Positions 898 to 30,995 of a stretch of DNA of 64,000 nucleotides are shown one piece after another. The notes under the pieces are model-generated. The model was not told where the DNA came from. It ran no database searches and worked only from the letters and a program-made list of their open reading frames with translations. Source of the DNA: Eledone cirrhosa (lineage: Eukaryota); NCBI GenBank assembly GCA_964016885.1, contig OZ024741.1:258974001-259038000 (forward strand), in the 5' to 3' direction. The position numbers were made by a program, and so were the translations under genes. Positions within the stretch are counted from its first letter, which is position 1. The number at the start of each line of letters is the position of its first letter.

Positions 898-967
898 GTA
901 TAAATAAAGATTAATGTAATGAATTTGAAAAGCATAGAGATTTGAAACCGCGTCTATTTGTTATTTT
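898..967. repeat. 70-bp AT-rich cassette copy 1 (GTATAAATAAAGATTAATGTAATGAATTTGAAAAGCATAGAGATTTGAAACCGCGTCTATTTGTTATTTT)
   Basis: Non-satellite sequence preceded by the variant monomer CGTAAAGCGAAAC and followed by CGTAAGTCG. Confidence 0.95.
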
Positions 968-1474
968 CGTAAGTCGAAACACTCGTAAGCCGAAACACTC
1001 GTGAGCCGAAACACTCGTAAGTCGGAACACTCGTAAGTCAGAACACTCGTAAGTCAAAACACTCGTAAGTTAGAACACTCGTAAGTCAGAACACGCGTAA
1101 GTCAGAACACTCGTAAGTCAGAACACTCGTAAGTCGAAACACTCGTATCGAAACACTCGTATGTCAAAACACCAGTAAGTCAAAACACTCGTAAGTCGAA
1201 ACACTCGTAAGCCGAAACACCGTAAGTCAAAACACTCGTAAGTCGAAACACTCGTAAGTCGAAACACTCGTAAGTCGAAACACTCGTAAGTCGAAACACT
1301 CGTAAGCCGAAACACTCGTAAGCCGAAACACTCGTAAGTCGGAACACTCGTAAGTCAGAACACTCATAAGTCAGAACACTCGTAAGTCAGAACACTCGTA
1401 AGTCGAAACACTCGTATCGAAACACTCGTAAGTCAAAACACCAGATCAAAAGGTTGAATTTTATGTGCATAACA

Positions 1475-1872
1475 AACACTCCCTGAAACATAAATAATAA
1501 ACATGTAAAGTTTGAAAAAAATCGGTTGGGTACTTCTCGCATTTTAGGGATTCAAACTCACAGACACACACACACACACACACAGACAGACATCCTCAGG
1601 GAAGTGACGTAATGCAGACAGCCAGACATACAGACAGATATTATAAGGGCACGACGTTATATGTATCTATCTAAAAAGAGAAAGACTAAGAATTATAGAG
1701 AGAGATCGCTAAATCGCCTAATGTGGTCCCTAGGGCATTGAAAATTTGAAATATTTTTTGCTCAGAACACTCCCTGAAACATAAGTATTACATGTGTAAA
1801 GTTCGAAAACAGTCGGTTGGGTGGTTCTCGAGTTTTAACGATTGAAACTCACACACAGACAGACATCCTCAG
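1475..1872. repeat. Diverged internal direct repeat in the cassette: 1475-1599 vs 1766-1872
   Basis: Both copies read AACACTCCCTGAAACATAA…TGTAAAGTT(T/C)GAAAA…TCGGTTGGGT…TTCTCG…GATT(C/G)AAACTCACA…CACAGACAGACATCCTCAG. Confidence 0.92.
1561..1592. repeat. (CA)n/(CAGA)n microsatellite in the cassette
   Basis: CAGA(CA)10GACAGACA in copy 1. The (CA) count is about 7 in copies 2-4 and 8 in copies 5-7. Confidence 0.9.
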
Positions 1873-1887
1873 TTTTATATATATAGA

Positions 1888-1924
1888 CTAGCAGAAAACC
1901 ACCCGGTGAGCGGTTTTCTGCTAG
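1888..1924 (-). other. Inverted repeat/hairpin: perfect 13-bp stem CTAGCAGAAAACC…GGTTTTCTGCTAG with an 11-nt spacer; present in all 7 cassettes
   Basis: Arms at 1888-1900 and 1912-1924 are exact reverse complements. On the minus strand the stem extends 4 more pairs (two G·T wobbles), leaving a 3-nt loop. Confidence 0.92.
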
Positions 1925-3774
1925 CAAATCTAGTGTATATACTGATATTGTTGAGATTTGGATGAGAAATGTTTTTGGCACCACATGTTCACCGTCTCTC
2001 GGTGTGTCTTTTATGCATGTATAAATATATATGTTATCTATACGGTGAAATCTTTGAAATAAATATATGTTAAAACGAAAAAGGAAAAAAAGAGATTAGT
2101 GACGGAAATATAAACGTTATGATATAACGATGGAAATCTATAAACGTTTACGATAAAACGAAGGAAATAGAAACGTTTATATATAATAAGCCGAAAGACT
2201 CGTAAGCCGAAACACTCGTAAGCCGAAACACTCATAAGTCGAAACACTCGTAAGTCGAAACACACGTAAGCCGAAACACTGAAACACTCGTAAGCCGAAA
2301 CACTCGTAAGTCGAAACACTCGTAAGCCGAAACACTCGTAAGCCGAAATAATCGTAAGTCAAAACATTCGTAAGCCGAAACACTCGTAAGTGGAAACACG
2401 CGTTAGCCGGAACACTCGTAAGTCGAAACACTCGTACGCCGAAACCCTCGTAAGTCGGAACACTCGTAACTCAGAACACTCGTCAGTCAGAACACTCGTA
2501 AGTCGAAACACCCGTAAGTCAAAACACTCGTAAGTCGAAACACTCGTAAGTCAGAACACTCGTAGGTCAGAACACTCGTAAGTCGAAACACTCGTATCGA
2601 AACACTCGTATGTCAAAACAACCGTAAGTCATAACACTCGTAAGACGAAACACTCGTAACTCGAAACACTCGTAAGTCGAAACACTCGTAAGTCGAAACA
2701 CCCGTAAGTCAAAACACCCGTAAGTCATAACACTCCTAAGTCGAAACACTCTTAAGTCGAAACACCCGTAAGTCGAAACACACGTAAGTCAAAACACTCG
2801 TATGTCGAAACACTCGTAAGCCGAAACACCGTAAGTCAAAACACTCGTAAGTCGAAACACTCGTAAGTCGAAACACTCGTAAGTCGAAACACTCGTAGGC
2901 CGAAACACTCGTAAGCCAAAACATTCGTAAGTCGAAACACTCGTAAGCCGAAACACTCGTAAGTCGAAACACTCGTAAGCCGAAGCACTCGTAAGTCGAA
3001 ACCCTCATAAGCCGAAACACTCGTAAGTCGGTAGACTCGTAAGTCAGAACACCCGTAAGTCAGAACACTCGTAAGTCAGAACACTCGTAAGTCAGAACAC
3101 TCGTAAGTCAGAACACTCGTATCGAAACACTCGTATGTCAAAACACCCGTAAGTCAAAACACTCGTAAGTCGAAACACTCGTAAGCCGAAACATTCGTAA
3201 GTCAAAACAATCGTAAGCCGAAACACTTGTAAGTCGAAACACCCGTAAGTCAGAACATTCGTAAGTCAAAACACTCGTAAGTCGAAACACTCGTAAGTCG
3301 AAACACTCGTAAGTCGAAACACGCGTAAGTCAGAACACTCGTAGGTCAGAACATTCGTAAGTCGAAACACTCGTAAGTCAGAACACTCGTAACACTCGTA
3401 AGTCGAAACACTCGTATCGAAACACTCGTATGTCAAAACACCCGTAAGTCATAACACTCGTAAGTCGAAACACTCGTAAGCAGAAACACCGTAAGTCAAA
3501 ACACTCGTAAGTCAAAACACTCGTAAGTCGAAACACTCGTATGTCGAAACACTCGTAAGTCGGAACACTCGTAAGCCGAAACACTCGTAAGTCGGAACGC
3601 TCGTAAGTCGGAACACTCGTAAGTCAGAACACTCTTAAGTCGAAACACACGTAAGCCGAAACACCCGTAAGTCAAAACACTCTTAAGTCAAAACACTCGT
3701 AAGCCGAAACACACGTAAGTCAAAACACTCGTAAGTCGAAACACTCGTACGCCGAAACACTCGTAAAGCGAAAC

Positions 3775-3844
3775 GTATAAATAAAGATTAATGTAATGAA
3801 TTTGAAAAGCATAGATATTTGAAACCGCGTCTATTTGTTATTTT
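3775..3844. repeat. 70-bp cassette copy 2
   Basis: Same sequence, AATTTG/GATATT allele. Confidence 0.95.
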
Positions 3845-4682
3845 CGTAAGTCGAAACACTCGTAAGCCGAAACACTCGTAAGTCGAAACACTCGTAAGTC
3901 GGAACATTCGTAAGTCGAAACACTCGTAAGTCGAAACACTCGTAAGTCGAAACACGCGTACGTCGAAACACCCGTAAGTTAAAACACTCGTAAGTCGAAA
4001 CACTCGTAAGCCGAAACACCCGTAAGTCAGAACATTCGTAAGTCAAAACACTCGTAAGTCGAAACACTCGTAAGTCGAAACACTCGTAAGTCGAAACAGT
4101 CGTAAGTCGAAACACCCGTAAGTCAAAACACTCGAAAGTCAGAACACTCGTAAGTCGAAACACTCGTAAGTCAGAACACTCGTAACACTCGTAAGTCGAA
4201 ACACTCGTATCGAAACACTCGTATGTCAAAACTCCCGTAAGTCATAACACTCGTAAGTCGAAACACTCGTAAGCAGAAACACCGTAAGTCAAAACACTTG
4301 TAAGTCAAAACACTCGAAAGTCGAAACACTCGTAAGTCGAAACACTCGTAAGTCGAAACACTCGTAAGCAGAAACACCGTAAGTCAAAACACTCGTAAGT
4401 CAAAACACTCGAAAGTCGAAACACTCGTAAGTCGAAACACTCGTAAGCCGAAACACTCGTAAGTCGAAACACTCGTAAGTCGTAAAAACTCGTAAGTCGA
4501 AACACTCGTAAGTCGAAACACTCGTAAGCCGAAACACTCGTAAGCCGAAACACTCGTAAGTCGGAACACTCGTAAGTCAGAACGCTCGTAAGTCAGATCA
4601 CTCGTAAGTCAGAACACTCGTAAGTCAGAACACTCGTAAGTCGAAACACTCGTATCGAAACACTCGTAAGTCAAAACACCAG

Positions 4683-5421
4683 ATCAAAAGGTTGAATTTT
4701 ATGTGCATAACAAACACTCCCTGAAACATAAGTAATAAACATGTAAAGTTTGAAAAAAATCGGTTGGGTACTTCTCGCATTTTAGGGATTCAAATTCACA
4801 GACACACACACACACAGACAGATATCCTCAGGGAAGTGACGTAATGCAGACAGCCAGACATACAGACAGATATTATAAGGGCACGACGTTATATGTATGT
4901 ATCTATCTAAAAAGAGAAAGACTAAGAATTATAGAGCGAGATCGCTAAATCGCCTAATGTGGTCCCTAGGGCATTGAAAATTTGAAATATTTTTTGCTCA
5001 GAACACTCCCTGAAACATAAGTATTACATGTGTAAAGTTCGAAAACAGTCGGTTGGGTTGTTCTTGAGTTTTAAGGATTGAAACTCACACACAGACAGAC
5101 ATCCTCAGTTTTATATATATAGACTAGCAGAAAACCACCCGGTGAGCGGTTTTCTGCTAGCAAATCTAGTGTATATACTGATATTGTTGAGATTTGGATG
5201 AGAAATGTTTTTGGCACCACATGTTCAAGCGTCTCTCGGTGTGTCTTTTATGCATGTATAAATATATGTTATCTATACGGTGAAATCTTTGAAATAAATA
5301 TATGTTAAAACGAAAAAGGAGAAAAAGAGATTAGTGACGGAAATATAAACGTTATGATATAACGATGGAAATATATAAACGTTTACGATAAAACGATGGA
5401 AATAGAAACGTTTATATATAA
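4683..5421 (-). mobile_element. ~740-bp cassette copy 2 (type B), junction at 5124/5123
   Basis: Near-identical to copy 1. Type-B markers are ATGTATGTATCT, GAGCGAGAT, TTCAAGCGTCTC and AAGGAGAAAAAG. Confidence 0.7.
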
Positions 5422-6605
5422 TAAGCCGAAAGACTCGTAAGCTGAAACACTCGTAAGCCGAAACACTCATAAGTCGAAACACTCGTAAGTCGAAACACAC
5501 GTAAGCCGAAACACTGAAACACTCGTAAGCCGAAACACTCGTAAGTCGAAACACTCGTAAGCCGAAACACTCGTAAGCCGAAACACTCGTAAGCCGAAAT
5601 ACTCGTAAGTCAAAACACTCGTATGTCGAAACACTCGTAAACCGAAACACTCGTAAGTCGGAACACTCGTAAGTCAGAACACTCGTAAGTCAGAACACTC
5701 GTAAGTCGAAACACTCATAAGTCGAAACACTCGTAAGTCGAAACACCCGTAAGTCGAAACACCCGTAAGTTGAAACACTCGTATGTCGAATAACTCGTAA
5801 GCCGAAACACCGTAAGTCAAAACACTCGTAAGTCGAAACACTCGTAAGTCGAAACACCCATAAGCCGAAACACTCGTAAGCCAAAACATTCGTAAGTCGA
5901 AACACTCGTAAACCGAAACACTCGTAAGCCAAAACATTCGTAAGTCGAAACACTCGTAAGTCGAAACACCCATAGCCGAAACACTCGTAAGTCGGAACAC
6001 ACGTAAGTCAGAACACCCGTAAGTCAGAACACTCGTAAATCAGAACACTCGTAAGTCAGAACACTCGTAAGTCAGAGCACTCGTATCGAAACACTCGTAT
6101 GTCAAAACACCCGTAAGTCAAAACACTCGTAAGTCGAAACACTCGTAAGCCGAAACACCGTAAGCCAAAACACTCGTAAGTCGAAACACCCGTAAGTCGG
6201 AACACTCGTAAGTCGAAACAATCGTATGTCAAAACACCCCTAAGTCATAACACTCGTAAGTCGAAACACTCGTAAGCAGAAACACCGTAAGTCAAATCAC
6301 TCGTAAGTCAAAACACTCGAAAGTCGAAACACTCGTAAGTCGAAACACTCGTAAGTCGAAACACTCGTAAGCCGAAACACTCGTAAGTCGAAACACTCGT
6401 ATGTCGTAACACTCGTAAGTCGAAACACTCGTAAGCCGAAACACTCGTAAGCTGAAACAATCGTAAGTCGGAACACTAGTAAGTCAGAACGCTCGTAAGT
6501 CAGAAGACTCGTAAGTCAGAACACTCGTAAGTCAGAACACTCGTAAGTCAGAACACTCGTAAGTCGAAACACTCGTATCGAAACACTCGTAAGTCAAAAC
6601 ACCAG

Positions 6606-7341
6606 ATCAAAAGGTTGAATTTTATGTGCATAACAAACACTCCCTGAAACATAAATAATAAACATTTAAATTTTGAAAAAAATCGGTTGGGTACTTCTCG
6701 CATTTTAGGGATTCAAACTCAGACACACACACACACACAGACAGACATCCTCAGGGAATTGACGTAATGCAGACAGCCAGACATACAGACAGATATTATA
6801 AGGGCACGACGTTATATGTATCTATCTAAAAAGAGAAAGACTAAGAATTATAGAGAGAGATCGCTAAATCGCCTAATGTGGTCCCTAGGGCATTGAAAAT
6901 TTGAAATATTTTTTGCTCAGAACACTCCCTGAAACATAAGTATTACATGTGTAAAGTTCGAAAACAGTCGGTTGGGTGGTTCTCGAGTTTTAAGGATTGA
7001 AACTCACACACAGACAGACATCCTCAGTTTTATATATATAGACTAGCAGAAAACCACCCGGTGAGCGGTTTTCTGCTAGCAAATCTAGTGTATATACTGA
7101 TATTGTTGAGATTTGGATGAGAAATGTTTTTGGCACCACATGTTCACCGTCTCTCGGTGTGTCTTTTATGCATGTATAAATATATATGTTATCTATACGG
7201 TGAAATCTTTGAAATAAATATATGTTAAAACGAAAAAGGAAAAAAAGAGATTAGTGACGGAAATATAAACGTTATGATATAACGATGGAAATATATAAAC
7301 GTTTACGATAAAACGAAGGAAATAGAAACGTTTATATATAA
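6606..7341 (-). mobile_element. ~740-bp cassette copy 3 (type A), junction at 7043/7042
   Basis: Near-identical to copy 1, with the same satellite flanks (…CACCAG| and |TAAGCCGAAAGACTC). Confidence 0.7.
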
Positions 7342-9001
7342 TAAGCCGAAAGACTCGTAAGCCGAAACACTCGTAAGCCGAAACACTCATAAGTCGAAAC
7401 ACTCGTAAGTCGAAACACACGTAAGCCGAAACACTGAAACACTCGTAAGCCGAAACACTCGTAAGTCGAAACACTCGTAAGCCGAAACACTCGTAAGCCG
7501 AAACACTCGTAAGCCGAAATACTCGTAAGTCAAAACATTCTTAAGCCGAAACACTCGTAAGTGGAAACACGCGTTAGCCGGAACACTCGTAAGTCGAAAC
7601 ACTCGTACGCCGAAACCCTCGTAAGTCGGAACACTCGTAACTCAGAACACTCGTCAGTCAGAACACTCGTAAGTCGAAACACCCGTAAGTCAAAACACTC
7701 GTAAGTCGAAACACTCGTAAGTCAGAACACTCGTAGGTCAGAACACTCGTAAGTCGAAACACTCGTTAGTCAGAACACTCGTAACACTCGTAAGTCGAAA
7801 CACTCGTATCGAAACACTCGTATGTCAAAACAACCGTAAGTCATAACACTCGTAAGACGAAACACTCGTAACTCGAAACACTCGTAAGTCGAAACACTCG
7901 TAAGTCGAAACACCCGTAAGTCAAAACACCCGTAAGTCATAACACTCGTAAGTCGAAACACTCTTAAGTCGAAACACCCGTAAGTCGAAACACACGTAAG
8001 TCAAAACACTCGTATGTCGAAACACTCGTAAGCCGAAACACCGTAAGTCAAAACACTCGTAAGTCGAAACACTCGTAAGTCGAAACACTCGTAAGTCGAA
8101 ACACTCGTAAGCCGAAACACTCGTAAGCCAAAACATTCGTAAGTCGAAACACTCGTAAGCCGAAACACTCGTAAGTCGAAACACTCGTAAGCCGAAGCAC
8201 TCGTAAGTCGAGACCCTCATAAGCCGAAATACTCGTAAGTCGGAAGACTCGTAAGTCAGAACACCCGTAAGTCAGAACACTCGTACGTCAGAACACTCGT
8301 AAGTCAGAACACTCGTAAGTCAGAACACTCGTATCGAAACACTCGTATGTAAAAACACCCGTAAGTCAAAACACTCGTAAGTCGAAACACTCGTAAGCCG
8401 AAACATTCGTAAGCCAAAACAATCGTAAGTCAAAACAATCGTAAGCCGAAACACTTGTAAGTCGAAACACCCGTAAGTCAGAACATTCGTAAGTCAAAAC
8501 ATTCGTAAGTCGAAACACTCGTAAGTCGAAACACTCGTAAGTCGAAACACGCGTAAGTCAGAACACTCGTAGGTCAGAACATTCGTAAGTCAAAACACTC
8601 GTAAGTCAGAACACTCGTAACACTCGTAAGTCGAAACACTCGTATCGAAACACTCGTATGTCAAAACACCCGTAAGTCATAACACTCGTAAGTCGAAACA
8701 CTCGTAAGCAGAAACACCGTAAGTCAAAACACTCGTAAGTCAAAACACTCGTAAGTCGAAACACTCGTATGTCGAAACACTCGTAAGTCGGAACACTCGT
8801 AAGCCGAAACACTCGTAAGTCGGAACGCTCGTAAGTCGGAACACTCGTAAGTCAGAACACTCTTAAGTCGAAACACTCGTAAGCCGAAACACCCGTTGTC
8901 AAAACACTCTTAAGTCAAAACACTCGTAAGCCGAAACACACGTAAGTCAAAACACTCGTAAGTCGAAACACTCGTACGCCGAAACACTCGTAAAGCGAAA
9001 C

Positions 9002-9071
9002 GTATAAATAAAGATTAATGTAATGAATTTGAAAAGCATAGATATTTGAAACCGCGTCTATTTGTTATTTT
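9002..9071. repeat. 70-bp cassette copy 3
   Basis: AATTTG/GATATT allele. Confidence 0.95.
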
Positions 9072-9973
9072 CGTAAGTCGAAACACTCGTAAGCCGAAAC
9101 ACTCGTAAGTCGAAACACTCGTAAGTCGGAACATTCGTAAGTCGAAACACTCGTAAGTCGAAACACTCGTAAGTCGAAACACGCGTAAGTCGAAACACCC
9201 GTAAGTTAAAACACTCGTAAGTCGAAACACTCGTAAGCCGAAACACCCGTAAGTCAGAACATTCGTAAGTCAAAACACTCGTAAGTCGAAACACTCGTAA
9301 GTCGAAACACTCGTAAGTCGAAACACTCGTAAGTCGAAACACCCGTAAGTCAAAACACTCGTAAGTCAGAACACTCGTAGGTCAGAACACTCGTAAGTCG
9401 AAACACTCGTAAGTCAGAACACTCGTAACACTCGTAAGTCGAAACACTCGTATCGAAACACTCCTATGTCAAAACACCCGTAAGTCATAACACTCGTAAG
9501 TCGAAACACTCGTAAGCAGAAACACCGTAAGTCAAAACACTTGTAAGTCAAAACACTCGAAAGTCGAAACACTCGTAAGTCGAAACACTCGTAAGTCGAA
9601 ACACTCGTAAGCAGAAACACCGTAAGTCAAAACACTCGTAAGTCAAAACACTCGAAAGTCGAAACACTCGTAAGTCGAAACACTCGTAAGCCGAAACACT
9701 CGTAAGTCGAAACACTCGTAAGTCGTAAAAACTCGTAAGTCGAAACACTCGTAAGTCGAAACACTCGTAAGCCGAAACACTCGTAAGCCGAAACACTCGT
9801 AAGTCGGAACACTCGTAAGTCAGAACGCTCGTAAGTCAGATCACTCGTAAGTCAGAACACTCGTAAGTCAGAACACTCGTAAGTCAGAACACTCGTAAGT
9901 CAGAACACTCGTAAGTCAGAACACTCGTAAGTCGAAACACTCGTATCGAAACACTCGTAAGTCAAAACACCAG

Positions 9974-10712
9974 ATCAAAAGGTTGAATTTTATGTGCATA
10001 ACAAACACTCCCTGAAACATAAGTAATAAACATGTAAAGTTTGAAAAAAATCGGTTGGGTACTTCTCGCATTTTAGGGATTCAAACTCACAGACACACAC
10101 ACACACAGACAGACATCCTCAGGGAAGTGACGTAATGCAGACAGCCAGACATACAGACAGATATTATAAGGGCACGACGTTATATGTATGTATCTATCTA
10201 AAAAGAGAAAGACTAAGAATTATAGAGCGAGATCGCTAAATCGCCTAATGTGGTCCCTAGGGCATTGAAAATTTGAAATATTTTTTGCTCAGAACACTCC
10301 CTGAACCATAAGTATTACATGTGTAAAGTTCGAAAACAGTCGGTTGGGTTGTTCTCGAGTTTTAAGGATTGAAACTCACACACAGACAGACATCCTCAGT
10401 TTTATATATATAGACTAGCAGAAAACCACCCGGTGAGCGGTTTTCTGCTAGCAAATCTAGTGTATATACTGATATTGTTGAGATTTGGATGAGAAATGTT
10501 TTTGGCACCACATGTTCAAGCGTCTCTCGGTGTGTCTTTTATGCATGTATAAATATATGTTATCTATACGGTGAAATCTTTGAAATAAATATATGTTAAA
10601 ACGAAAAAGGAGAAAAAGAGATTAGTGACGGAAATATAAACGTTATGATATAACGATGGAAATATATAAACGTTTACGATAAAACGATGGAAATAGAAAC
10701 GTTTATATATAA
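9974..10712 (-). mobile_element. ~740-bp cassette copy 4 (type B), junction at 10415/10414
   Basis: Shares the type-B diagnostic variants with copy 2. Confidence 0.7.
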
Positions 10713-12819
10713 TAAGCCGAAAGACTCGTAAGCTGAAACACTCGTAAGCCGAAACACTCATAAGTCGAAACACTCGTAAGTCGAAACACACGTAAGCCGA
10801 AACACTGAAACACTCGTAAGCCGAAACACTCGTAAGTCGAAACACTCGTAAGCCGAAACACTCGTAAGCCGAAACACTCGTGAGCCGAAATACTCGTAAG
10901 TCAAAACATTCGTAAGCCGAAACACTCGTAAGTGGAAACACGCGTAAGCCGGAACACTCGTAAGTCGAAACACTCGTACACCGAAACACTCGTAAGTCGG
11001 AACACTCGTAAGTCGAAACACCGTAAGTCAAAACACTCGTATGTCGAAACATCCGTAAATCAGAACACTCGTAAGTCAAAACACTCGTAAGTCGAAACAC
11101 TCGTAAGCCAAAAATACTCGTAAGTCGAAACACCCTTAAGTCAAAACACTCGTAAGTCGAAACACTCGTAAGCCGAAACACCCGTAAGTCAAAACACCCG
11201 TAAGTCGAAACACTCGTAAGTCGAAACACTCGTACGCCGAAACACTCGTAAGTAAAAACATTAGTAAGTCGAAACACTCGTAAGCCGAAAGACTCGTAAG
11301 TCGAAACACTCGTAAGTCGAAACACCCGTAAGTCAAAACATTCGTAAGTCAAAACACTCGTAAGTCGAAACACTCGTAAGTAGAAACACTCGTAAGTCAA
11401 ATCTCTCGTACGCCGAAACACTCGTAAGTAAAAACATTAGTAAGTCGAAACACTCGTAAGCCGAAACACTCATAAGTCGAAACACTCGTAAGCCGAAACA
11501 CCCGTAAGTCAAAACATTCGTAAGTCAAAACACTCGTAAGTCGAAACACCCGTAAGTCAAAACACTCGTATGTCGAAACACTCGTAAGCCGAAACAACGT
11601 AAGTAAAAACACTCGTAAGTCGAAACACCCATAAGTCGAAACACTCGTAAGCCGAAACACTCGTAAGTCGAAACACTCATAAGCCGAAACACTCGTAAGT
11701 CGGAACACTCGTAAATCAGAACACCCGCAAGTCAGAACACTCGTAAATCAGAACACTCTTAAGTCGAAACTCACGTACGCCGAAACACTCTTAAGTCGAA
11801 ACACTCGTAAGTCGAAACATCCTTAAGTCGAAACACTCGTAAGTCGAAACACTCGTAAGTCGAAACACCCGTAAGTCGAAACACCCGTAAGTCAAAACAC
11901 TCGTATGTCGAAACACTCGTAAACCGAAACACTCGTAAGTCGGAACACTCGTAAGTCAGAACACTCGTAAGTCAGAACACTCGTAAGTCGAAACACTCAT
12001 AAGTCGAAACACTCGTAAGTCGAAACACCCGTAAGTCGAAACACCCGTAGGTCGAAACACTCGTATGTCGAATAACTCGTAAGCCGAAACACCGTAAGTC
12101 AAAACACTCGTAAGTCGAAACACTCGTAAGTCGAAACACCCATAAGCCAAAACACTCGTAAGCCAAAACATTCGTAAGTCGAAACACTCGTAAACCGAAA
12201 CACTCGTAAGCCAAAACATTCGTAAGTCGAAACACTCGTAAGTCGAAACACCCATAGCCGAAACACTGGTAAGTCGGAACACACGTAAGTCAGAACACCC
12301 GTAAGTCAGAACACTCGTAAGTCAGCACACTCGTAAGTCAGAACACTCGTAAGTCAGAGCACTCGTATCGAAACACTCGTATGTCAAAACACCCTTAAGT
12401 CAAAACACTCGTACGTCGAAACACTCGTAAGCCGAAACACCGTAAGCCAAAACACTCGTAAGTCGAAACACCCGTAAGTCGGAACACTCGTAAGTCGAAA
12501 CACTCGTAAGTCGAAACACTCGTAAGCCGAAACACTCGTAAGCCGAAACACTCGTAAGTCGAAACACTCGTATCGAAACACTCGTAAGTCGAAACACACT
12601 TAAGTCAAAACACTCGTAAGCCAAAACACTCGTAAGTCGAAACACTCGTAAGTCGGAACACTCGTAAGTCAGAACACTCGTAAGTCAGAACACTCGTAAG
12701 TGGAAACACGCGTAAGTCGAAAGACCCGTAAGTCAAAAATCTCGTAAGTCAAAACACTCGTAAGCCGAAACACTCGTAAGTCGAAACACTCGTAAGTCGA
12801 AACATTCGTAAAGCGAAAC

Positions 12820-12889
12820 GTATAAATAAAGATTAATGTAATGAACTTGAAAAGCATAGATATTTGAAACCGCGTCTATTTGTTATTTT
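12820..12889. repeat. 70-bp cassette copy 4
   Basis: AACTTG/GATATT allele. Confidence 0.95.
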
Positions 12890-14210
12890 CGTAAGTCGAA
12901 ACACTCGTAAGTCAGAACACTCGTAAGTCAGAACACTCTTAAGTCAGAACACTCGTATCGAAACACACGTATGTCAAAACACCCGTAAGTCAAAACACTC
13001 GTAAGTCGAAACACTCGTAAGTCGAAACACTCGTAAGCCGAAACAATCGTAAGTCAAAACACTCTTAAGTCGAAACACTCGTAAGCCGAAAATACTCGTA
13101 AGTCGGAACACCCGTAAGCCGAAACCCTCGTAGGTCGGAACACTCGTAAGTCGAAACACTCGTAAGTCGAAACACCCGTAAGTCGGAACACTCGTAAGTC
13201 AGAATACTCGTAAGTCGAAACACTCGTAAACCGGAACACCCGTAAGGCAAAACATTCGCAAGTCAAAACACTCGTAAGTCGAAACACTCGTAAGCCGAAA
13301 CACTCGTAAGTCGAAACACTCGTAAGTCGAAACACTCGTAAGTCGAAAAACTCGTAAGTCAGTGCACCCGTAAGTCAGAACACTCGTAGTCAGAACACTC
13401 GTAAGTCGAAACACTCGTAAGTCGAAACACCCGTAAGTCGAAACATCCGTAAGTCAAAACACTCGTATGTCGAAACACTCGTAAGCCGAAACACTCGTAA
13501 GTCGGAACACTCGCAAGTCAGAACACTCGTAAGTCAGAACACTCGTAAGTCGAAACACTCGTAAGTCGAAACACCCGTAAGTCGAAACGCCCGTAAGTCA
13601 AAACACTCGTATGTCGAAACACTCGCAAGCCGAAAAACCGTAAGTCAAAACACTCGTAAGTCGAAACACTCGTAAGTCGAAACACTCGTAAGCCGAAACA
13701 CTCGTAAGCGAAAACATTCGTAAGTCGAAACACTCGTAACCCGAAACACTCGTAAGTCGAAACACTCGAAAGCCGAAACACTCGTAAGTCGAAACACTCA
13801 TAAGCCGAAACACTCGTAAGTCGGAACACTCGTAAGTCAGAACACCCGTAAGTCAGAACACTCGTAGTCAGAACACTCGTAAGTCGAAACACTCGTAAGC
13901 CGAAACACTCGCAAGTCGAAGCACTCGTAATCCGAAACACTCTTAAGTCGAAACACTCGTAAGTCGGAACACTCGTAAGTCAGAACACTCGTAAGTCAGA
14001 ACACTCGTAAGTCGAAACACTCGTAAGCCGAAACATCCGTAAGTCAAAACATCCGTAAGTCAAAACACTCGTAAGCCGAAACACTCGCAAGTCGAAGCAC
14101 TCGTAATCCGAAACACATGTAAGTCAAAACACTCGTAAGTCAAAACACTCGTAAGCCGAAACACTCGTAAGTCGAAACACTCGTAAGTCGAAACACTCGT
14201 AAAGCGAAAC

Positions 14211-14280
14211 GTATAAATAAAGATTAATGTAATGAATTTGAAAAGCATAGAGATTTGAAACCGCGTCTATTTGTTATTTT
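14211..14280. repeat. 70-bp cassette copy 5
   Basis: AATTTG/GAGATT allele. Confidence 0.95.
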
Positions 14281-15569
14281 CGTAAGTCGAAACACTCGTA
14301 AGCCGAAACACTCGTGAGCCGAAACACTCGTAAGTCGGAACACTCGTAAGTCAGAACACTCGTAAGTCAGAACACTCGTAAGTTAGAACACTCGTAAGTC
14401 AGAACACTCGTAAGTCAGAACACTCGTAAGTCAGAACACTCGTAAGTCGAAACACTCGTATCGAAACACTCGTATGTCAAAACACCAGTAAGTCAAAACA
14501 CTCGTAAGTCGAAACACTCGTAAGCCGAAACACTGTAAGTCAAAACACTCGTAAGTCGAAACACTCGTAAGTCGAAACACTCGTAAGCCGAAACACTCGT
14601 AAGCCGAAACACTCGTAAGTCGGAACACTCGTAAGTCAGAACACTCATAAGTCAGAACACTCGTAAGTCAGAACACTCGTAAGTCGAAACACTCGTAAGC
14701 CGAAACACCGTAAGTCGAAACACCCGTATGTCGAAACACTCGTAAGCCGAAACACTCGTAAGTCGAAACACCCGTAGTTGAAACACTCGTAAGTCGAAAC
14801 ACCCGTAAGTCGAAACACTCGTAAGTCGAAACACTCGTAAGCCGAAACACTCGTAAGTCGAAACACTCATATGCCGAAACACTCGTAAGTCGAAACACTC
14901 GTAAGTCAGAACACTCGTAGTCAGAACACTCGTAAGTTAAACCACTCGTAAGCCGAAACACTCGTAAGTCGAAACACTCGTAAGTCAAAACACTCGTAAG
15001 TCGAAAAACTCGTAAGCCGGAACACTCGTAAGTCAGAACACTCGTAAGTCAGAACACTCGTAAGTCGAAACACTCGTAAGCCGAAACACCCGTAAGTCGA
15101 AACATTCGTAAGTCGAAACAGCCGTAAGTCGAAACAGTCGTAAGTCGAAACAGCCGTAAGTCGAAACACTCGTAAGTCGAAACACTCGTAAGTCGAAACA
15201 CCGTAAGTCAAAACACTCGTATGTCGAAACATCCGTAAATCAGAACACTCCTAAGTCAAAACACTCGAAAGTCGAAACACTCGTAAGTCGAAACACTCGT
15301 AAGTCGAAACACTCGTAAGCCGAAACACTCGTAAATCGAAACACTCGTAAGTCGTAACACTCGTAAGTCGAAACACTCGTAAGCCGAAACACTCGTAAGC
15401 CGAAACACTCGTAAGTCGGAACACTCGTAAGTCAGAACGCTCGTAAGTCAGAACACTCGTAAGTCAGAACACTCGTAAGTCAGAACACTCGTAAGTCAGA
15501 ACACTCGTAAGTCAGAACACTCGTAAGTCGAAACACTCGTATCGAAACACTCGTAAGTCAAAACACCAG

Positions 15570-16305
15570 ATCAAAAGGTTGAATTTTATGTGCATAACAA
15601 ACACTCCCTGAAACAAATAATAAACATGTAAAGTTTGAAAAAAATCGGTTGGGTACTTCTCGCATTTTAGGGATTCAAACTCACAGACACACACACACAC
15701 ACAGACAGACATCCTCAGGGAAGTGACGTAATGCAGACAGCCAGACATACAGACAGATATTATAAGGGCACGACGTTATATGTATCTATCTAAAAAGAGA
15801 AAGACTAAGAATTATAGAGAGAGATCGCTAAATCGCCTAATGTGGTCCCTAGGGCATTGAAAATTTGAAATATTTTTTGCTCAGAACACTCCCTGAAACA
15901 TAAGTATTACATGTGTAAAGTTCGAAAACAGTCGGTTGGGTGGTTCTCGAGTTTTAACGATTGAAACTCACACACAGACAGACATCCTCAGTTTTATATA
16001 TATAGACTAGCAGAAAACCACCCGGTGAGCGGTTTTCTGCTAGCAAATCTAGTGTATATACTGATATTGTTGAGATTTGGATGAGAAATGTTTTTGGCAC
16101 CACATGTTCACCGTCTCTCGGTGTGTCTTTTATGCATGTATAAATATATATGTTATCTATACGGTGAAATCTTTGAAATAAATATATGTTAAAACGAAAA
16201 AGGAAAAAAAGAGATTAGTGACGGAAATATAAACGTTATGATATAACGATGGAAATATATAAACGTTTACGATAAAACGAAGGAAATAGAAACGTTTATA
16301 TATAA
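15570..16305 (-). mobile_element. ~740-bp cassette copy 5 (type A'), junction at 16007/16006
   Basis: Type A with a 1-bp deletion (CTGAAACAAATAATAA) shared with copies 6 and 7. Confidence 0.7.
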
Positions 16306-18600
16306 TAAGCCAAAAGACTCGTAAGCCGAAACACTCGTAAGCCAAAACACTCATAAGTCGAAACACTCGTAAGTCGAAACACACGTAAGCCGAAACACTG
16401 AAACACTCGTAAGCCGAAACACTCGTAAGTCGAAACACTCGTAAGCCGAAACACTCGTAAGCCGAAACACTCGTAAGCCGAAATACTCGTAAGTCAAAAC
16501 ATTCGTAAGCCGAAACACTCGTAAGTGGAAACACGCGTGAGCCGGAACACTCGTAAGTCGAAACACTCGTACGCTGAAACCCTCGTAAGTCGGAACACTC
16601 GTAACTCAGAACACTCGTCAGTCAGAACACTCGTAAGTCGAAACACCCGTAAGTCAAAACACTCGTAAGTCGAAACACTCGTATCGAAACACTCGTATGT
16701 CAAAACAACCGTAAGTCATAACACTCGTAAGTCGAAACACTCGTAACTCGAAACACTCGTAAGTCGAAACACTCGTAAGTCGAAACACCCGTAAGTCAAA
16801 ACACCCGTAAGTCATAACACTCGTAAGTCGAAACACACTTAAGTCAAAACACCCGTAAGTCATAACACTCGTAAGTCGGAACACTCGTAAGTCGAAACAC
16901 CGTAAGTCAAAACACTCGTATGTCTAAACATCCGTAAATCAGAACACTCGTAAGTCAAAACACTCGTAAGTCGAAACACTCGTAAGCCAAAAATACTCGT
17001 AAGTCGAAACACCCTTAACTCAAAACACTCGTAAGTCGAAACACTCGTAAGCCGAAACACCCGTAAGTCAAAACACCCGTAAGTCGAAACACTCGTAAGT
17101 CGAAACACTCGTACGCCGAAACACTCGTAAGTAAAAACATTAGTAAGTCGAAACACTCGTAAGCCGAAAGACTCGTAAGTCGAAACACTCGTAAGTCGAA
17201 ACACCCGTAAGTCAAAACATTCGTAAGTCAAAACACTCGTAAGTCGAAACACTCGTAAGTAGAAACACTCGTAAGTCAAATCTCTCGTACGCCGAAACAC
17301 TCGTAAGTAAAAACATTAGTAAGTCGAAACACTCGTAAGCCGAAACACTCATAAGTCGAAACACTCGTAAGCCGAGACACCCGTAAGTCAAAACATTCGT
17401 AAGTAAAAACACTCGTAAGTCGAAACACCCATAAGTCGAAACACTCGTAAGCCGAAACACTCGTAAGTCGAAACACTCATAAGCCGAAACACTCGTAAGT
17501 CGGAACACTCGTAAATCAGAACACCCGCAAGTCAGAACACTCGTAAATCAGAACACTCTTAAGTCGAAACTCACGTACGCCGAAACACTCGTAAGTCGAA
17601 ACACTCGTAAGTCGAAACATCCTTAAGTCGAAACACTCGTACACCGAAACACTCGTAAGTATAAACATTAGTAAGTCGAAACACTCGTAAGCCGAAACAC
17701 TCGTAAGTCGAAACACCCATAGCCGAAACACTGGTAAGTCGGAACACACGTAAGTCAGAACACCCGTAAGTCAGAACACTCGTAAGTCAGCACACTCGTA
17801 AGTCAGAACACTCGTAAGTCAGAGCACTCGTATCGAAACACTCGTATGTCAAAACACCCTTAAGTCAAAACACTCGTACGTCGAAACACTCGTAAGCCGA
17901 AACACCGTAAGCCAAAACACTCGTAAGTCGAAACACCCGTAAGTCGGAACACTCATAAGTCGAAACACTCGTAAGTCGAAACACTCGTAAGCCGAAACAC
18001 TCGTAAGCCGAAACACTCGTAAGTCGGAACACTCGTAAGTCGGAACACTCGTAAGTCAGATCACTCGTAAGTCAGAACACTCGTAAGTCAGAACACTCGT
18101 AAGTCAGAACACTCGTAAGTCGAAACACTCGTATCGAAACACTCGTATGTCAAAACACCCATAAGTCAAAACACTCGTAAGTCGAAACATTCGTATGTCG
18201 AAACATCCGTAAATATGAACACTCGTAAGTCGAAACACTCGTAAGTCGAAACACTCGTATCGAAACACTCGTAAGTCGAAACACACTTAAGTCAAAACAC
18301 TCGTAAGCCAAAACACTCGTATGTCGAAACATCCGTAAATATGAACACTCGTAAGTCGAAACACTCGTAAGTCGAAACACTCGTAAGCCGAAACACTCGT
18401 AAGTCGAAACACTCGTATCGAAACACTCGTAAGTCGGAACACTCGTAAGTCAGAACACTCGTAAGTCAGAACACTCGTAAGTGGAAACACGCGTAAGTCG
18501 AAAGACCCGTAAGTCAAAAATCTCGTAAGTCAAAACACTCGTAAGCCGAAACACTCGTAAGTCGAAACACTCGTAAGTCGAAACATTCGTAAAGCGAAAC

Positions 18601-18670
18601 GTATAAATAAAGATTAATGTAATGAACTTGAAAAGCATAGATATTTGAAACCGCGTCTATTTGTTATTTT
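18601..18670. repeat. 70-bp cassette copy 6
   Basis: AACTTG/GATATT allele. Confidence 0.95.
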
Positions 18671-19037
18671 CGTAAGTCGAAACACTCGTAAGTCAGAACA
18701 CTCGTAAGTCAGAACACTCTTAAGTCAGAACACTCGTATCGAAACACACGTATGTCAAAACACCCGTAAGTCAAAACACTCGTAAGTCGAAACACTCGTA
18801 AGTCGAAACACTCGTAAGCCGAAACAATCGTAAGTCAAAACACTCTTAAGTCGAAACACTCGTAAGCCGAAAATACTCGTAAGTCGGAACACTCGTAAGT
18901 CAGAACGCTCGTAAGTCAGAACACTCGTAAGTCAGAACACTCGTAAGTCAGAACACTCGTAAGTCAGAACACTCGTAAGTCAGAACACTCGTAAGTCGAA
19001 ACACTCGTATCGAAACACTCGTAAGTCAAAACACCAG

Positions 19038-19773
19038 ATCAAAAGGTTGAATTTTATGTGCATAACAAACACTCCCTGAAACAAATAATAAACATGTAAA
19101 GTTTGAAAAAAATCGGTTGGGTACTTCTCGCATTTTAGGGATTCAAACTCACAGACACACACACACACACAGACAGACATCCTCAGGGAAGTGACGTAAT
19201 GCAGACAGCCAGACATACAGACAGATATTATAAGGGCACGACGTTATATGTATCTATCTAAAAAGAGAAAGACTAAGAATTATAGAGAGAGATCGCTAAA
19301 TCGCCTAATGTGGTCCCTAGGGCATTGAAAATTTGAAATATTTTTTGCTCAGAACACTCCCTGAAACATAAGTATTACATGTGTAAAGTTCGAAAACAGT
19401 CGGTTGGGTGGTTCTCGAGTTTTAACGATTGAAACTCACACACAGACAGACATCCTCAGTTTTATATATATAGACTAGCAGAAAACCACCCGGTGAGCGG
19501 TTTTCTGCTAGCAAATCTAGTGTATATACTGATATTGTTGAGATTTGGATGAGAAATGTTTTTGGCACCACATGTTCACCGTCTCTCGGTGTGTCTTTTA
19601 TGCATGTATAAATATATATGTTATCTATACGGTGAAATCTTTGAAATAAATATATGTTAAAACGAAAAAGGAAAAAAAGAGATTAGTGACGGAAATATAA
19701 ACGTTATGATATAACGATGGAAATATATAAACGTTTACGATAAAACGAAGGAAATAGAAACGTTTATATATAA
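19038..19773 (-). mobile_element. ~740-bp cassette copy 6 (type A'), junction at 19475/19474
   Basis: Apparently identical to copy 5 at an offset of 3468 bp. Confidence 0.7.
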
Positions 19774-22068
19774 TAAGCCAAAAGACTCGTAAGCCGAAAC
19801 ACTCGTAAGCCAAAACACTCATAAGTCGAAACACTCGTAAGTCGAAACACACGTAAGCCGAAACACTGAAACACTCGTAAGCCGAAACACTCGTAAGTCG
19901 AAACACTCGTAAGCCGAAACACTCGTAAGCCGAAACACTCGTAAGCCGAAATACTCGTAAGTCAAAACATTCGTAAGCCGAAACACTCGTAAGTGGAAAC
20001 ACGCGTGAGCCGGAACACTCGTAAGTCGAAACACTCGTACGCTGAAACCCTCGTAAGTCGGAACACTCGTAACTCAGAACACTCGTCAGTCAGAACACTC
20101 GTAAGTCGAAACACCCGTAAGTCAAAACACTCGTAAGTCGAAACACTCGTATCGAAACACTCGTATGTCAAAACAACCGTAAGTCATAACACTCGTAAGT
20201 CGAAACACTCGTAACTCGAAACACTCGTAAGTCGAAACACTCGTAAGTCGAAACACCCGTAAGTCAAAACACCCGTAAGTCATAACACTCGTAAGTCGAA
20301 ACACACTTAAGTCAAAACACCCGTAAGTCATAACACTCGTAAGTCGGAACACTCGTAAGTCGAAACACCGTAAGTCAAAACACTCGTATGTCTAAACATC
20401 CGTAAATCAGAACACTCGTAAGTCAAAACACTCGTAAGTCGAAACACTCGTAAGCCAAAAATACTCGTAAGTCGAAACACCCTTAACTCAAAACACTCGT
20501 AAGTCGAAACACTCGTAAGCCGAAACACCCGTAAGTCAAAACACCCGTAAGTCGAAACACTCGTAAGTCGAAACACTCGTACGCCGAAACACTCGTAAGT
20601 AAAAACATTAGTAAGTCGAAACACTCGTAAGCCGAAAGACTCGTAAGTCGAAACACTCGTAAGTCGAAACACCCGTAAGTCAAAACATTCGTAAGTCAAA
20701 ACACTCGTAAGTCGAAACACTCGTAAGTAGAAACACTCGTAAGTCAAATCTCTCGTACGCCGAAACACTCGTAAGTAAAAACATTAGTAAGTCGAAACAC
20801 TCGTAAGCCGAAACACTCATAAGTCGAAACACTCGTAAGCCGAGACACCCGTAAGTCAAAACATTCGTAAGTAAAAACACTCGTAAGTCGAAACACCCAT
20901 AAGTCGAAACACTCGTAAGCCGAAACACTCGTAAGTCGAAACACTCATAAGCCGAAACACTCGTAAGTCGGAACACTCGTAAATCAGAACACCCGCAAGT
21001 CAGAACACTCGTAAATCAGAACACTCTTAAGTCGAAACTCACGTACGCCGAAACACTCGTAAGTCGAAACACTCGTAAGTCGAAACATCCTTAAGTCGAA
21101 ACACTCGTACACCGAAACACTCGTAAGTATAAACATTAGTAAGTCGAAACACTCGTAAGCCGAAACACTCGTAAGTCGAAACACCCATAGCCGAAACACT
21201 GGTAAGTCGGAACACACGTAAGTCAGAACACCCGTAAGTCAGAACACTCGTAAGTCAGCACACTCGTAAGTCAGAACACTCGTAAGTCAGAGCACTCGTA
21301 TCGAAACACTCGTATGTCAAAACACCCTTAAGTCAAAACACTCGTACGTCGAAACACTCGTAAGCCGAAACACCGTAAGCCAAAACACTCGTAAGTCGAA
21401 ACACCCGTAAGTCGGAACACTCATAAGTCGAAACACTCGTAAGTCGAAACACTCGTAAGCCGAAACACTCGTAAGCCGAAACACTCGTAAGTCGGAACAC
21501 TCGTAAGTCGGAACACTCGTAAGTCAGATCACTCGTAAGTCAGAACACTCGTAAGTCAGAACACTCGTAAGTCAGAACACTCGTAAGTCGAAACACTCGT
21601 ATCGAAACACTCGTATGTCAAAACACCCATAAGACAAAACACTCGTAAGTCGAAACATTCGTATGTCGAAACATCCGTAAATATGAACACTCGTAAGTCG
21701 AAACACTCGTAAGTCGAAACACTCGTATCGAAACACTCGTAAGTCGAAACACACTTAAGTCAAAACACTCGTAAGCCAAAACACTCGTATGTCGAAACAT
21801 CCGTAAATATGAACACTCGTAAGTCGAAACACTCGTAAGTCGAAACACTCGTAAGCCGAAACACTCGTAAGTCGAAACACTCGTATCGAAACACTCGTAA
21901 GTCGGAACACTCGTAAGTCAGAACACTCGTAAGTCAGAACACTCGTAAGTGGAAACACGCGTAAGTCGAAAGACCCGTAAGTCAAAAATCTCGTAAGTCA
22001 AAACACTCGTAAGCCGAAACACTCGTAAGTCGAAACACTCGTAAGTCGAAACATTCGTAAAGCGAAAC

Positions 22069-22138
22069 GTATAAATAAAGATTAATGTAATGAACTTGAA
22101 AAGCATAGATATTTGAAACCGCGTCTATTTGTTATTTT
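22069..22138. repeat. 70-bp cassette copy 7
   Basis: AACTTG/GATATT allele, 3468 bp after copy 6. Confidence 0.95.
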
Positions 22139-24703
22139 CGTAAGTCGAAACACTCGTAAGTCAGAACACTCGTAAGTCAGAACACTCTTAAGTCAGAACA
22201 CTCGTATCGAAACACACGTATGTCAAAACACCCGTAAGTCAAAACACTCGTAAGTCGAAACACTCGTAAGTCGAAACACTCGTAAGCCGAAACAATCGTA
22301 AGTCAAAACACTCTTAAGTCGAAACACTCGTAAGCCGAAAATACTCGTAAGTCGGAACACCCGTAAGCCGAAACCCTCGTAGGTCGGAACACTCGTAAGT
22401 CGAAACACTCATAAGTCGAAACACCCGTAAGTCGGAACACTCGTAAGTCAGAATACTCGTAAGTCGAAACACTCGTAAACCGGAACACCCGTAAGGCAAA
22501 ACATTCGCAAGTCAAAACACTCGTAAGTCGAAACACTCGTAAGCCGAAACACTCGTAAGTCGAAACACTCGTAAGTCGAAACACTCGTAAGTCGAAAAAC
22601 TCGTAAGTCAGTGCACCCGTAAGTCAGAACACTCGTAGTCAGAACACTCGTAAGTCGAAACACTCGTAAGTCGAAACACCCGTCAGTCGAAACATCCGTA
22701 AGTCAAAACACTCGTATGTCGAAACACTCGTAAGCCGAAACACTCGTAAGTCGGAACACTCGCAAGTCAGAACACTCGTAAGTCAGAACACTCGTAAGTC
22801 GAAACACTCGTAAGTCGAAACACCCGTAAGTCGAAACGCCCGTAAGTCAAAACACTCGTATGTCGAAACACTCGCAAGCCGAAAAACCGTAAGTCAAAAC
22901 ACTCGTAAGTCGAAACACTCGTAAGTCGAAACACTCGTAAGCCGAAACACTCGTAAGCGAAAACATTCGTAAGTCGAAACACTCGTAACCCGAAACACTC
23001 GTAAGTCGAAACACTCGAAAGCCGAAACACTCGTAAGTCGAAACACTCATAAGCCGAAACACTCGTAAGTCGGAACTCTCGTAAGTCAGAACACCCGTAA
23101 GTCAGAACACTCGTAGTCAGAACACTCGTAAGTCGAAACACTCGTAAGCCGAAACACTCGCAAGTCGAAGCACTCGTAATCCGAAACACTCTTAAGTCGA
23201 AACACTCGTAAGTCGGAACACTCGTAAGTCAGAACACTCGTAAGTCAGAACACTCGTAAGTCGAAACACTCGTAAGCCGAAACATCCGTAAGTCAAAACA
23301 TCCGTAAGTCAAAACACTCGTAAGCCGAAACACTCGCAAGTCGAAGCACTCGTAATCCGAAACACATGTAAGTCAAAACACTCGTAAGTCAAAACACTCG
23401 TAAGCCGAAACACTCGTAAGTCGAAACACTCGTAAGTCGAAACACTCGTAAGCCGAAACACTCGCGAGCCGAAACACTCGTAAGTCGGAACACTCGTAAG
23501 TCAGAACACTCGTAAGTCAGAACACTCGTAAGTTAGAACACTCGTAAGTCAGAACACTCGTAAGTCAGGACACTCGTAAGTCAGAACACTCGTAAGTCGA
23601 AACACTCGTATCGAAACACTCGTATGTCAAAACACCAGTAAGTCAAAACACTCGTAAGTCGAAACACTCGTAAGCCGAAACACTGTAAGTCAAAACACTC
23701 GTAAGTCGAAACACTCGTAAGTCGAAACACTCGTAAGCCGAAACACTCGTAAGCCGAAACACTCGTAAGTCGGAACACTCGTAAGTCAGAACACTCATAA
23801 GTCAGAACACTCGTAAGTCAGAACACTCGTAAGTCGAAACACTCGTAAGCCGAAACACCGTAAGTCGAAACACCCGTATGTCGAAACACTCGTAAGCCGA
23901 AACACTCGTAAGTCGAAACACCCGTAGTTGAAACACTCGTAAGTCGAAACACCCGTAAGTCGAAACACTCGTAAGTCGAAACACTCGTAAGCCGAAACAC
24001 TCGTAAGTCGAAACACTCATATGCCGAAACACTCGTAAGTCGAAACACTCGTAAGTCAGAACACTCGTAGTCAGAACACTCGTAAGTCAAACCACTCGTA
24101 AGCCGAAACACTCGTAAGTCGAAACACTCGTAAGTCAAAACACTCGTAAGTCGATAAACTCGTAAGCCGGAACACTCGTAAGTCAGAACACTCGTAAGTC
24201 AGAACACTCGTAAGTCGAAACACTCGTAAGCCGAAACACCCGTAAGTCGAAACATTCGTAAGTCGAAACACCCGTAAGTCGAAACAGTCGTAAGTCGAAA
24301 CAGCCGTAAGTCGAAACACTCGTAAGTCGAAACACTCGTAAGTCGAAACACCGTAAGCCAAAACACTCGTATGTCGAAACATCCGTAAATCAGAACACTC
24401 CTAAGTCAAAACACTCGAAAGTCGAAACACTCGTAAGTCGAAACACTCGTAAGTCGAAACACTCGTAAGCCGAAACACTCGTAAATCGAAACACTCGTAA
24501 GTCGTAACACTCGTAAGTCGAAACACTCGTAAGCCGAAACACTCGTAAGCCGAAACACTCGTAAGTCGGAACACTCGTAAGTCAGAACGCTCGTAAGTCA
24601 GAACACTCGTAAGTCAGAACACTCGTAAGTCAGAACACTCGTAAGTCAGAACACTCGTAAGTCAGAACACTCGTATCGAAACACTCGTAAGTTAAAACAC
24701 CAG

Positions 24704-25439
24704 ATCAAAAGGTTGAATTTTATGTGCATAACAAACACTCCCTGAAACAAATAATAAACATGTAAAGTTTGAAAAAAATCGGTTGGGTACTTCTCGCATT
24801 TTAGGGATTCACACTCACAGACACACACACACACACAGACAGACATCCTCAGGGAAGTGACGTAATGCAGACAGCCAGACATACAGACAGATATTATAAG
24901 GGCACGACGTTATATGTATCTATCTAAAAAGAGAAAGACTAAGAATTATAGAGAGAGATCGCTAAATCGCCTAATGTGGTCCCTAGGGCATTGAAAATTT
25001 GAAATATTTTTTGCTCAGAACACTCCCTGAAACATAAGTATTACATGTGTAAAGTTCGAAAACAGTCGGTTGGGTGGTTCTCGAGTTTTAACGATTGAAA
25101 CTCACACACAGACAGACATCCTCAGTTTTATATATATAGACTAGCAGAAAACCACCCGGTGAGCGGTTTTCTGCTAGCAAATCTAGTGTATATACTGATA
25201 TTGTTGAGATTTGGATGAGAAATGTTTTTGGCACCACATGTTCACCGTCTCTCGGTGTGTCTTTTATGCATGTATAAATATATATGTTATCTATACGGTG
25301 AAATCTTTGAAATAAATATATGTTAAAACGAAAAAGGAGAAAAAGAGATTAGTGACGGAAATATAAACGTTATGATATAACGATGGAAATATATAAACGT
25401 TTACGATAAAACGAAGGAAATAGAAACGTTTATATATAA
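24704..25439 (-). mobile_element. ~740-bp cassette copy 7 (type A' with one B-like site), junction at 25141/25140; last copy in the window
   Basis: Matches copy 5 at an offset of 9134 bp but carries AAGGAGAAAAAG as in type B. Confidence 0.7.
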
Positions 25440-27889: not shown

Positions 27890-27959
27890 GTATAAATAAA
27901 GATTAATGTAATGAACTTGAAAAGCATAGATATTTGAAACCGCGTCTATTTGTTATTTT
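27890..27959. repeat. 70-bp cassette copy 8
   Basis: AACTTG/GATATT allele. Confidence 0.95.
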
Positions 27960-29074: not shown

Positions 29075-29144
29075 GTATAAATAAAGATTAATGTAATGAA
29101 TTTGAAAAGCATAGAGATTTGAAACCGCGTCTATTTGTTATTTT
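29075..29144. repeat. 70-bp cassette copy 9
   Basis: AATTTG/GAGATT allele. Confidence 0.95.
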
Positions 29145-30925: not shown

Positions 30926-30995
30926 GTATAAATAAAGATTAATGTAATGAATTTGAAAAGCATAGAGATTTGAAACCGCGTCTATTTGTTATTTT
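30926..30995. repeat. 70-bp cassette copy 10
   Basis: AATTTG/GAGATT allele. Confidence 0.95.

Follow-up and report, generated by a model that had tools for sequence, protein, structure and literature searches.

How a satellite comes to hold repeated, exact joints between the 3′ end of one Helitron and the 5′ start of another is the question raised by this part of the Eledone cirrhosa genome. The window, i.e. the whole stretch of 64,000 nucleotides analyzed here (C2:258,974,001-259,038,000 of the 3.0-Gb genome, C2 being the contig that bears the window), is filled by a 16-bp satellite that is broken up by seven cassettes of ~735 bp. On the minus strand, each cassette contains a Helitron tail ending in CTAG, directly followed by the TC start of a Helitron head (CTAG/TC joint). 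The first-pass annotation of this DNA had taken head, satellite and tail for a single non-autonomous Helitron amplified as a head-to-tail rolling-circle concatemer, an interpretation that as a whole is partly supported. Tail and head belong to two Helitron families, named X and Y here. The satellite of the window very probably grew from the 16-bp internal repeat of one X copy lying at the 5′ TC end of a Y copy, and the CTAG/TC joints are in all likelihood recombination copies of that junction. The parts of the window are as follows.

1..64000, plus strand: 16-bp satellite array, ~90% of the window, running on past both sides; very probably the expanded internal repeat of Helitron family X.
900..961, minus strand: 62-bp spacer, copy 1 of 21; the remaining copies start at 3777, 9004, 12822, 14213, 18603, 22071, 27892, 29077, 30928, 33141, 34324, 36873, 39086, 40174, 41989, 44202, 45290, 53389, 54524 and 60257.
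1445..1887, minus strand: head 1, the 5′ 443 bp of non-autonomous Helitron family Y, starting with TC at 1887 and truncated at Y base ~486, where the satellite is attached.
1888..2186, minus strand: tail 1, the 3′ 299 bp of Helitron family X, with the terminal CTAG at 1888 and a 37-bp terminal palindrome at 1888-1924.
4683..5421, minus strand: cassette 2 (Y head and X tail), junction 5123/5124, haplotype B; right end approximate.
6606..7341, minus strand: cassette 3, junction 7042/7043, haplotype A.
9974..10712, minus strand: cassette 4, junction 10414/10415, haplotype B; right end approximate.
15570..16305, minus strand: cassette 5, junction 16006/16007, haplotype A.
19038..19773, minus strand: cassette 6, junction 19474/19475, haplotype A.
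24704..25439, minus strand: cassette 7, junction 25140/25141, haplotype A; final cassette of its block.

All seven CTAG/TC junctions (the first at 1887/1888) are exact and identical across the ~95 bases compared, and their spacings of 3236, 1919, 3372, 5592, 3468 and 5666 bp are as first described. The subterminal hairpin at the end of the X tail is real as well (-15.3 kcal/mol, z = -6.7, equalled by 0/200 shuffles). It is a near-perfect 37-bp palindrome with the terminal CTAG inside it, which is atypical for a Helitron 3′ end.

Separate searches with head and tail, as the first-pass annotation had proposed, led to different places. The tail behaved as foreseen: among its 40 best matches, copies sit on several other contigs, end at CTAG and carry short 16-mer arrays. 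The head led to the other family, Y. Dispersed copies break at 1887/1888, which upholds the claim that Helitron termini lie inside the cassette and not at its edges. Family X, ~2 kb long, is arranged in the order CTAG, 299-bp tail, a few 16-mers, 62-bp spacer, further body and its own TC 5′ boundary, the last being common to 7/7 compared full-length satellite-bearing copies; the spacer adjoins the 16-mers in mobile X copies. The window head corresponds to bases ~486-1023 of family Y, which is ~1 kb long and owns a hairpin-CTAG 3′ end. Exact motif counts were 877 for the X 3′ end, 1,186 for the X 5′ end, 2,246 for the Y 5′ end and 1,714 for the Y 3′ end. Two distinct families, X and Y, are thus dispersed in the genome, and each possesses both a 5′ and a 3′ end of its own; the reading of head, satellite and tail as a single element falls with this. 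Among 35 X 5′ ends located in a C1 sample, 28 are flanked by A, 5 lie next to the CTAG of a further Helitron and 2 show other flanks. Judged from its sequence, X appears to be a canonical non-autonomous Helitron, with a TC 5′ end, a CTRR 3′ end with a hairpin, and insertion between A and T without target-site duplication.

The satellite-bearing form of X was found in 161 exact dispersed copies, and among the 100 listed none lies in C2:240-262 Mb. The first 30 copies hold 3 units (22/30), 2 units (7/30) or 1 unit (1/30) of the 16-mer. Since X copies carry the 16-mers between their own two ends, the satellite is Helitron cargo and X is its carrier. The earlier idea of a transposon-borne satellite, with the 16-mer as internal cargo of a non-autonomous Helitron, stands in this respect; the proposed building of the array as a rolling-circle concatemer does not.

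The mode of copying can be read from the array itself. The cassette array of the window extends leftward to a total of 24 cassettes (C2:258.911-258.999 Mb), with a tail truncated at base 82 as its left edge. Tail lies next to head in 66/66 array cassettes checked. The satellite-head joint occurs in 104 exact copies, 104/104 of them within C2:256.6-261.7 Mb, i.e. 5 Mb of one contig, and no dispersed monomer of the head-satellite-tail unit was found; head and tail flank satellite at no other locus, the very outcome that the first-pass annotation had named as speaking against it. Across the junctions of the 24-cassette array, the haplotypes of head and tail match in 24/24 cases, versus 10/23 across the satellite, i.e. 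within the proposed element. Distance correlations are r = 0.76 across the junction versus 0.05 across the satellite, and in a second array of 19 cassettes 0.43 versus 0.06. The three largest duplications (17-18 kb) have both ends inside satellite, 0/31 aligned blocks listed end at a junction, and one 4-cassette block is present three times in the array as a nested duplication. Furthermore, the cassettes of three other stretches are tandemly repeated even though 19/19 and 16/16 of them have a mutated CTAG. We find that the array is a recombinational higher-order repeat, built by nested block duplications with breakpoints in repeat sequence, and not a rolling-circle concatemer. On C1, an array of ~97 kb contains the array-type spacer but is bounded by a Helitron end on neither side; it therefore likely spread by recombination.

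A single head-satellite-tail Helitron copied as a rolling-circle concatemer would account for the precise CTAG/TC joints, which resemble the Helraiser circles described in PMC4778049 and PMC5876387. In formal terms, a 5′ and a 3′ end that could be used are present in every unit, and tandem Helitron arrays are reported from the Drosophila Y and from Xenopus. The two ends, however, belong to two families (tail X, head Y), the unit is not found dispersed, haplotype linkage and duplication breakpoints point the other way, and units with mutated CTAG multiplied in 35/35 cassettes of the three other stretches. The junction is also older than the array, since two loci described below, on C4 and at C2:240.96 Mb, have the junction without the satellite-head joint. 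This account is very improbable, and as the main mechanism the rolling-circle concatemer is refuted; an occasional rolling-circle event among existing cassettes may have taken place. A CTAG/TC joint inside an array is thus no evidence of rolling-circle amplification.

Near-identical blocks such as the 2,830-bp units and a 17.8-kb exact diagonal might also suggest that the repeated cassettes were produced by the assembly. Against this, several diverged haplotypes and nested levels of duplication are present, and in the contigs of run X2, which may share the assembly's source, summed depth is ~1e7 for the 16-mer, ~2e5 for the spacer and ~1e4 for the tail. An assembly artefact is the least credible of the explanations weighed here.

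The 62-bp non-satellite spacer, with 21 copies in the window, was absent from the first-pass annotation and proved the key marker of the satellite's origin. At the end of the C2 satellite domain at 254.735 Mb, the monomers pass into the spacer and then into X body with an 8-bp deletion, and this deletion beside the spacer supplies the bases found after the spacer throughout the arrays. The deleted form occurs four times, at three C2 block ends with one common flank and at C4:114.054 Mb. The C4 locus (C4:114,050,785-114,055,094) pairs a Y copy with a complete X element of 3,456 bp; the flanks are A and T, and the X cargo of 2,266 bp includes ~130 monomers and 3 spacers. The Y copy of this pair has a private allele found at just one other locus, C2:240.96 Mb, at which the head runs on into native Y; the two Y copies differ at 6/525 bases, versus 23-37 for five other Y copies. 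Comparison of the C4 and C2 flanks for a donor gave matches to common repeats only, the C2 outer ends being cut off by other sequence, and the Y+X pair may have moved by compound transposition or by duplication. At one tail position, 59/59 array tails have T, versus C in 33 dispersed and 12 other X copies. A 16-bp duplication present in 22/33 dispersed X copies is missing from all 59 array tails.

The opposite direction, the capture by X of a short stretch of a pre-existing satellite, draws on the monomer divergence of 8-10%, which exceeds the ~1% of dispersed X tails, and both directions have been considered for oyster HINEs (PMC7492417). Yet the array block ends pass straight into X body, and the array spacer joint retains bases that arise only through the X-body deletion. 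The X spacer is found in 5/5 sampled array regions, often identical to the X form, and the two monomers that X carries are the two commonest array monomers. Runs X5-X7, from other organisms, were left out of the weighing of directions, since they contain the satellite and parts of X at low depth only and these may stem from trace DNA; the runs listed as containing the sequences include none of RNA. Capture by X is unlikely, though less so than a concatemer.

From the families, junctions, intermediates and breakpoint pattern we infer the following order of events and enzymes, which leads from an X copy to the array. Y would have inserted first, and X then at the start of Y. Probably, a helper transposase nicks the 5′ end of a resident Helitron and X is joined into the nick, a mechanism suggested by the observed insertion pattern. 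One Y+X pair with the 8-bp deletion by the spacer expanded its 16-mers in place, a step directly visible in the sequence, with a complete example preserved at the C4 locus. Through a first rearrangement, the spacer may have been looped back among the 16-mers (2,077 exact copies). In a later rearrangement, the repeat may have become joined to mid-Y, so that head and tail were enclosed as a cassette (104 copies). As the breakpoints suggest, the domain would then have been built, with inversions, either by tandem segmental duplication or by unequal exchange within the satellite.

Several points weigh against this explanation. A third set of cassettes (n=9) is without informative sites, and a fourth (n=6) shows linkage in neither direction. 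The cassettes are non-independent owing to block duplications, and the permutation p-values for linkage are therefore too small. The T shared by the array tails is a CpG transition also seen in ~10 dispersed copies and is therefore weak alone. Array monomers lie 8-10% from consensus versus 0.5-4% for spacers and 1.0-1.6% for tails, a difference that, considered by itself, might point to an older satellite. Given the deletions private to it, the C4 locus is a sister or a later-modified donor and no proven ancestor. Finally, no autonomous partner with X ends was found among 10 long-frame RepHel loci, with 150 of 3,704 PF14214 candidates scored.

The remaining part of the question is why CTAG meets TC at all. 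TCTATA directly follows 547/877 X 3′ motifs on the element strand, array copies counted. We sampled 40 C1 loci, about every second of the first 100 listed, which gave 42 exact X ends. TC comes next in 40/42, and 35/42 passed a strict test for a Helitron-like start; among the seven misses, 4 are head-like and 2 result from matching the palindrome on its wrong side. For satellite-bearing X ends, the numbers are 28/29 for TC and 25/29 for the strict start. By contrast, the first 30 Y ends gave TC in 2/30 and a strict start in 0/30; by eye, one of the two adjoins a Y start and the other lies 4 bases off. Conversely, an X-type end occupies 10/23 located Y starts. X thus inserts at the 5′ end of resident Helitrons, between A and TC. 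By analogy with the cleavage and joining chemistry described for Helraiser (PMC4778049, PMC5876387), the target of X is probably a transposase nick at the host 5′ TC.

Alternatively, X might be untargeted: transposition reading past the X terminator would carry X along with whichever Helitron lies downstream. Both end bypass and compound Helitrons have been documented (PMC4224331, PMC4778049), and one Y+X pair is found at two loci. Among 11 satellite-bearing X copies, however, the tails are 95.5% alike and the abutting 120 bp only 60.5% alike (43-90%), and X abuts not only hosts of several families but also other X copies and an autonomous element. The combination of like tails and diverse hosts favours independent insertions over co-transposition. 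Read-through is an unlikely account of the pattern, if the least unlikely of the alternatives considered here.

Insertion of X at Helitron starts raises the question of what its palindrome contributes. A sister family with nearly the same terminal palindrome has ordinary AT-rich flanks in 5/5 cases (L066:1659, L086:3601, L098:3572, L170:2837, L221:3824), and the palindrome alone is therefore insufficient to explain targeting. At locus L165:2093-2350 (C1:23.67 Mb), the palindrome is followed by an inverted ~215 bp of the abutted Y copy, including its private variants, and then by the palindrome's second half. This inverted piece is likely a product of fold-back synthesis. Other X subfamilies have fixed inverted host starts (L088, L100, L116, L184). 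We considered whether the palindrome regularly flips during transposition and do not claim it, as just 5/70 palindromes read as flipped, several of them attributable to fold-back subfamilies. Taken together, these data allow a broader but tentative reading, to which we give somewhat less than even chances. X would parasitise other Helitrons, integrating almost only at transposase-cut 5′ TC ends; its palindrome would act as an either-strand terminator that captures inverted host pieces by fold-back; and one nested pair would have given rise to the satellite of several megabases and also, through compound transposition, brought a copy loaded with satellite from one chromosome to another. In the titles and abstract openings surveyed, with subscription papers mostly outside coverage, we found no description of family-wide targeting of Helitron 5′ ends or of the present satellite.

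Additional observations concern the families. At an eleventh candidate autonomous locus, X is located at the 5′ end. At L277 (C1:49,419,892-49,425,500), an autonomous Helitron interrupted by stops has an X-type element at its 5′ end. One family with long frames in the RepHel region (L269-L276, L221-L222, L235-L236) has its 3′ end joined to its apparent own 5′ end in 4/8 exact matches and is a candidate for true tandem Helitrons. Many near-identical RepHel matches lie ~100 kb apart on small contigs (L189-L216; C16, C19, C20, C27), which suggests tandem units of very large size. At C1:143.2-143.75 Mb, several Y starts follow one another at intervals of 46-62 kb. In several X copies (L062:1897-2013, L063, L246), differing insertions, which we take to be SINE-like (short interspersed element-like), share one common spot just ahead of the 16-mers.

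The array-type spacer joint occurs in 2,077 exact copies genome-wide, and cassettes are a minor component of the satellite, whose total is very roughly 4-5 Mb (5,487 triple-monomer matches scaled against 71 in the window). The domain at C2:254.7-262.0 Mb spans ~7 Mb with mixed orientations. Three further tandem repeats adjoin array ends (L140:1100-1657, L287:8306-8900, L153:1750-2448), 2/3 of the joins with short apparent overlaps, and from their appearance putative retroelement coding DNA interrupts array edges (L072:8700-9239, L070:7500-7875, L155:8610-9200).

For such satellites, studies usually do not settle whether they arose from a Helitron's own repeats or were captured by the Helitron. 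In the present genome, the stages are found side by side: 161 mobile copies have 1-3 units, one complete element has ~130, and the arrays extend over megabases. Together with sequence marks that give the order, these stages make the direction directly testable across individuals and relatives. A family-wide preference for Helitron 5′ ends, accompanied by a non-targeting control family, would offer a handle on Helitron target choice.

Among known systems, the closest are satellites formed by the central tandem repeats of DINE-TR1 and DINE elements in Drosophila, as given in a table entry of a review (PMC9659126). Common to both is the internal tandem repeat of a non-autonomous rolling-circle element expanding into a satellite; the present carrier differs from the Helentron-type ends of DINE in its canonical TC/CTAG ends and AT targets, and its unit is 16 bp. 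Moreover, junction marks and a complete 130-monomer intermediate give the direction here. According to PMC7492417, the non-autonomous Cg_HINE elements of the Pacific oyster are dispersed and contain short arrays at their centre, some of them with a relationship to a classical satellite. They differ from X in being Helentron-type, with oligo-T targets, 140-180-bp monomers and a direction of origin that was left open there. Compared with the features of HINE and DINE-1, X has AT instead of oligo-T targets along with its TC/CTAG ends, and subterminal inverted repeats were not searched separately; satellite-related central tandem repeats are present, with 1-3 units in 30/30 sampled X copies and ~130 at C4. 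Satellite from internal repeats of rolling-circle elements is also reported in Xenopus (PMC12001565).

Unlike Helitrons adjoining by consecutive insertion are reported at maize r1 (PMC2267711), among bat exemplars (PMC4778049) and in one Fusarium case (PMC5148889), and compound Helitrons are known from bats (PMC4224331). Those adjacencies, as reported, are single or few cases; here adjacency is the rule for a family of hundreds (40/42) and not for its neighbour family (2/30). Active wheat Helitrons are reported to favour plain AT sites (PMC13286980). Double insertion followed by unequal exchange was described in Drosophila by McGurk and Barbash (10.1101/158386), whose model shares with ours one tandem junction fixed in all units of an array and unequal exchange leading to higher-order repeats. 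Their array unit is a whole transposon, whereas the present one is mostly internal satellite plus a trapped junction fragment. The rolling-circle tandem arrays of one Helitron, such as Helitron-1_DPe on the Drosophila Y and those of Xenopus, have tandem head-to-tail joints in common with our array, but differ from it in that our ends are those of two families and our breakpoints fall within satellite. Collectively, Helitron-derived satellites and unlike Helitrons lying head-to-tail are known already, and the preserved stages and the near-obligate targeting are new.

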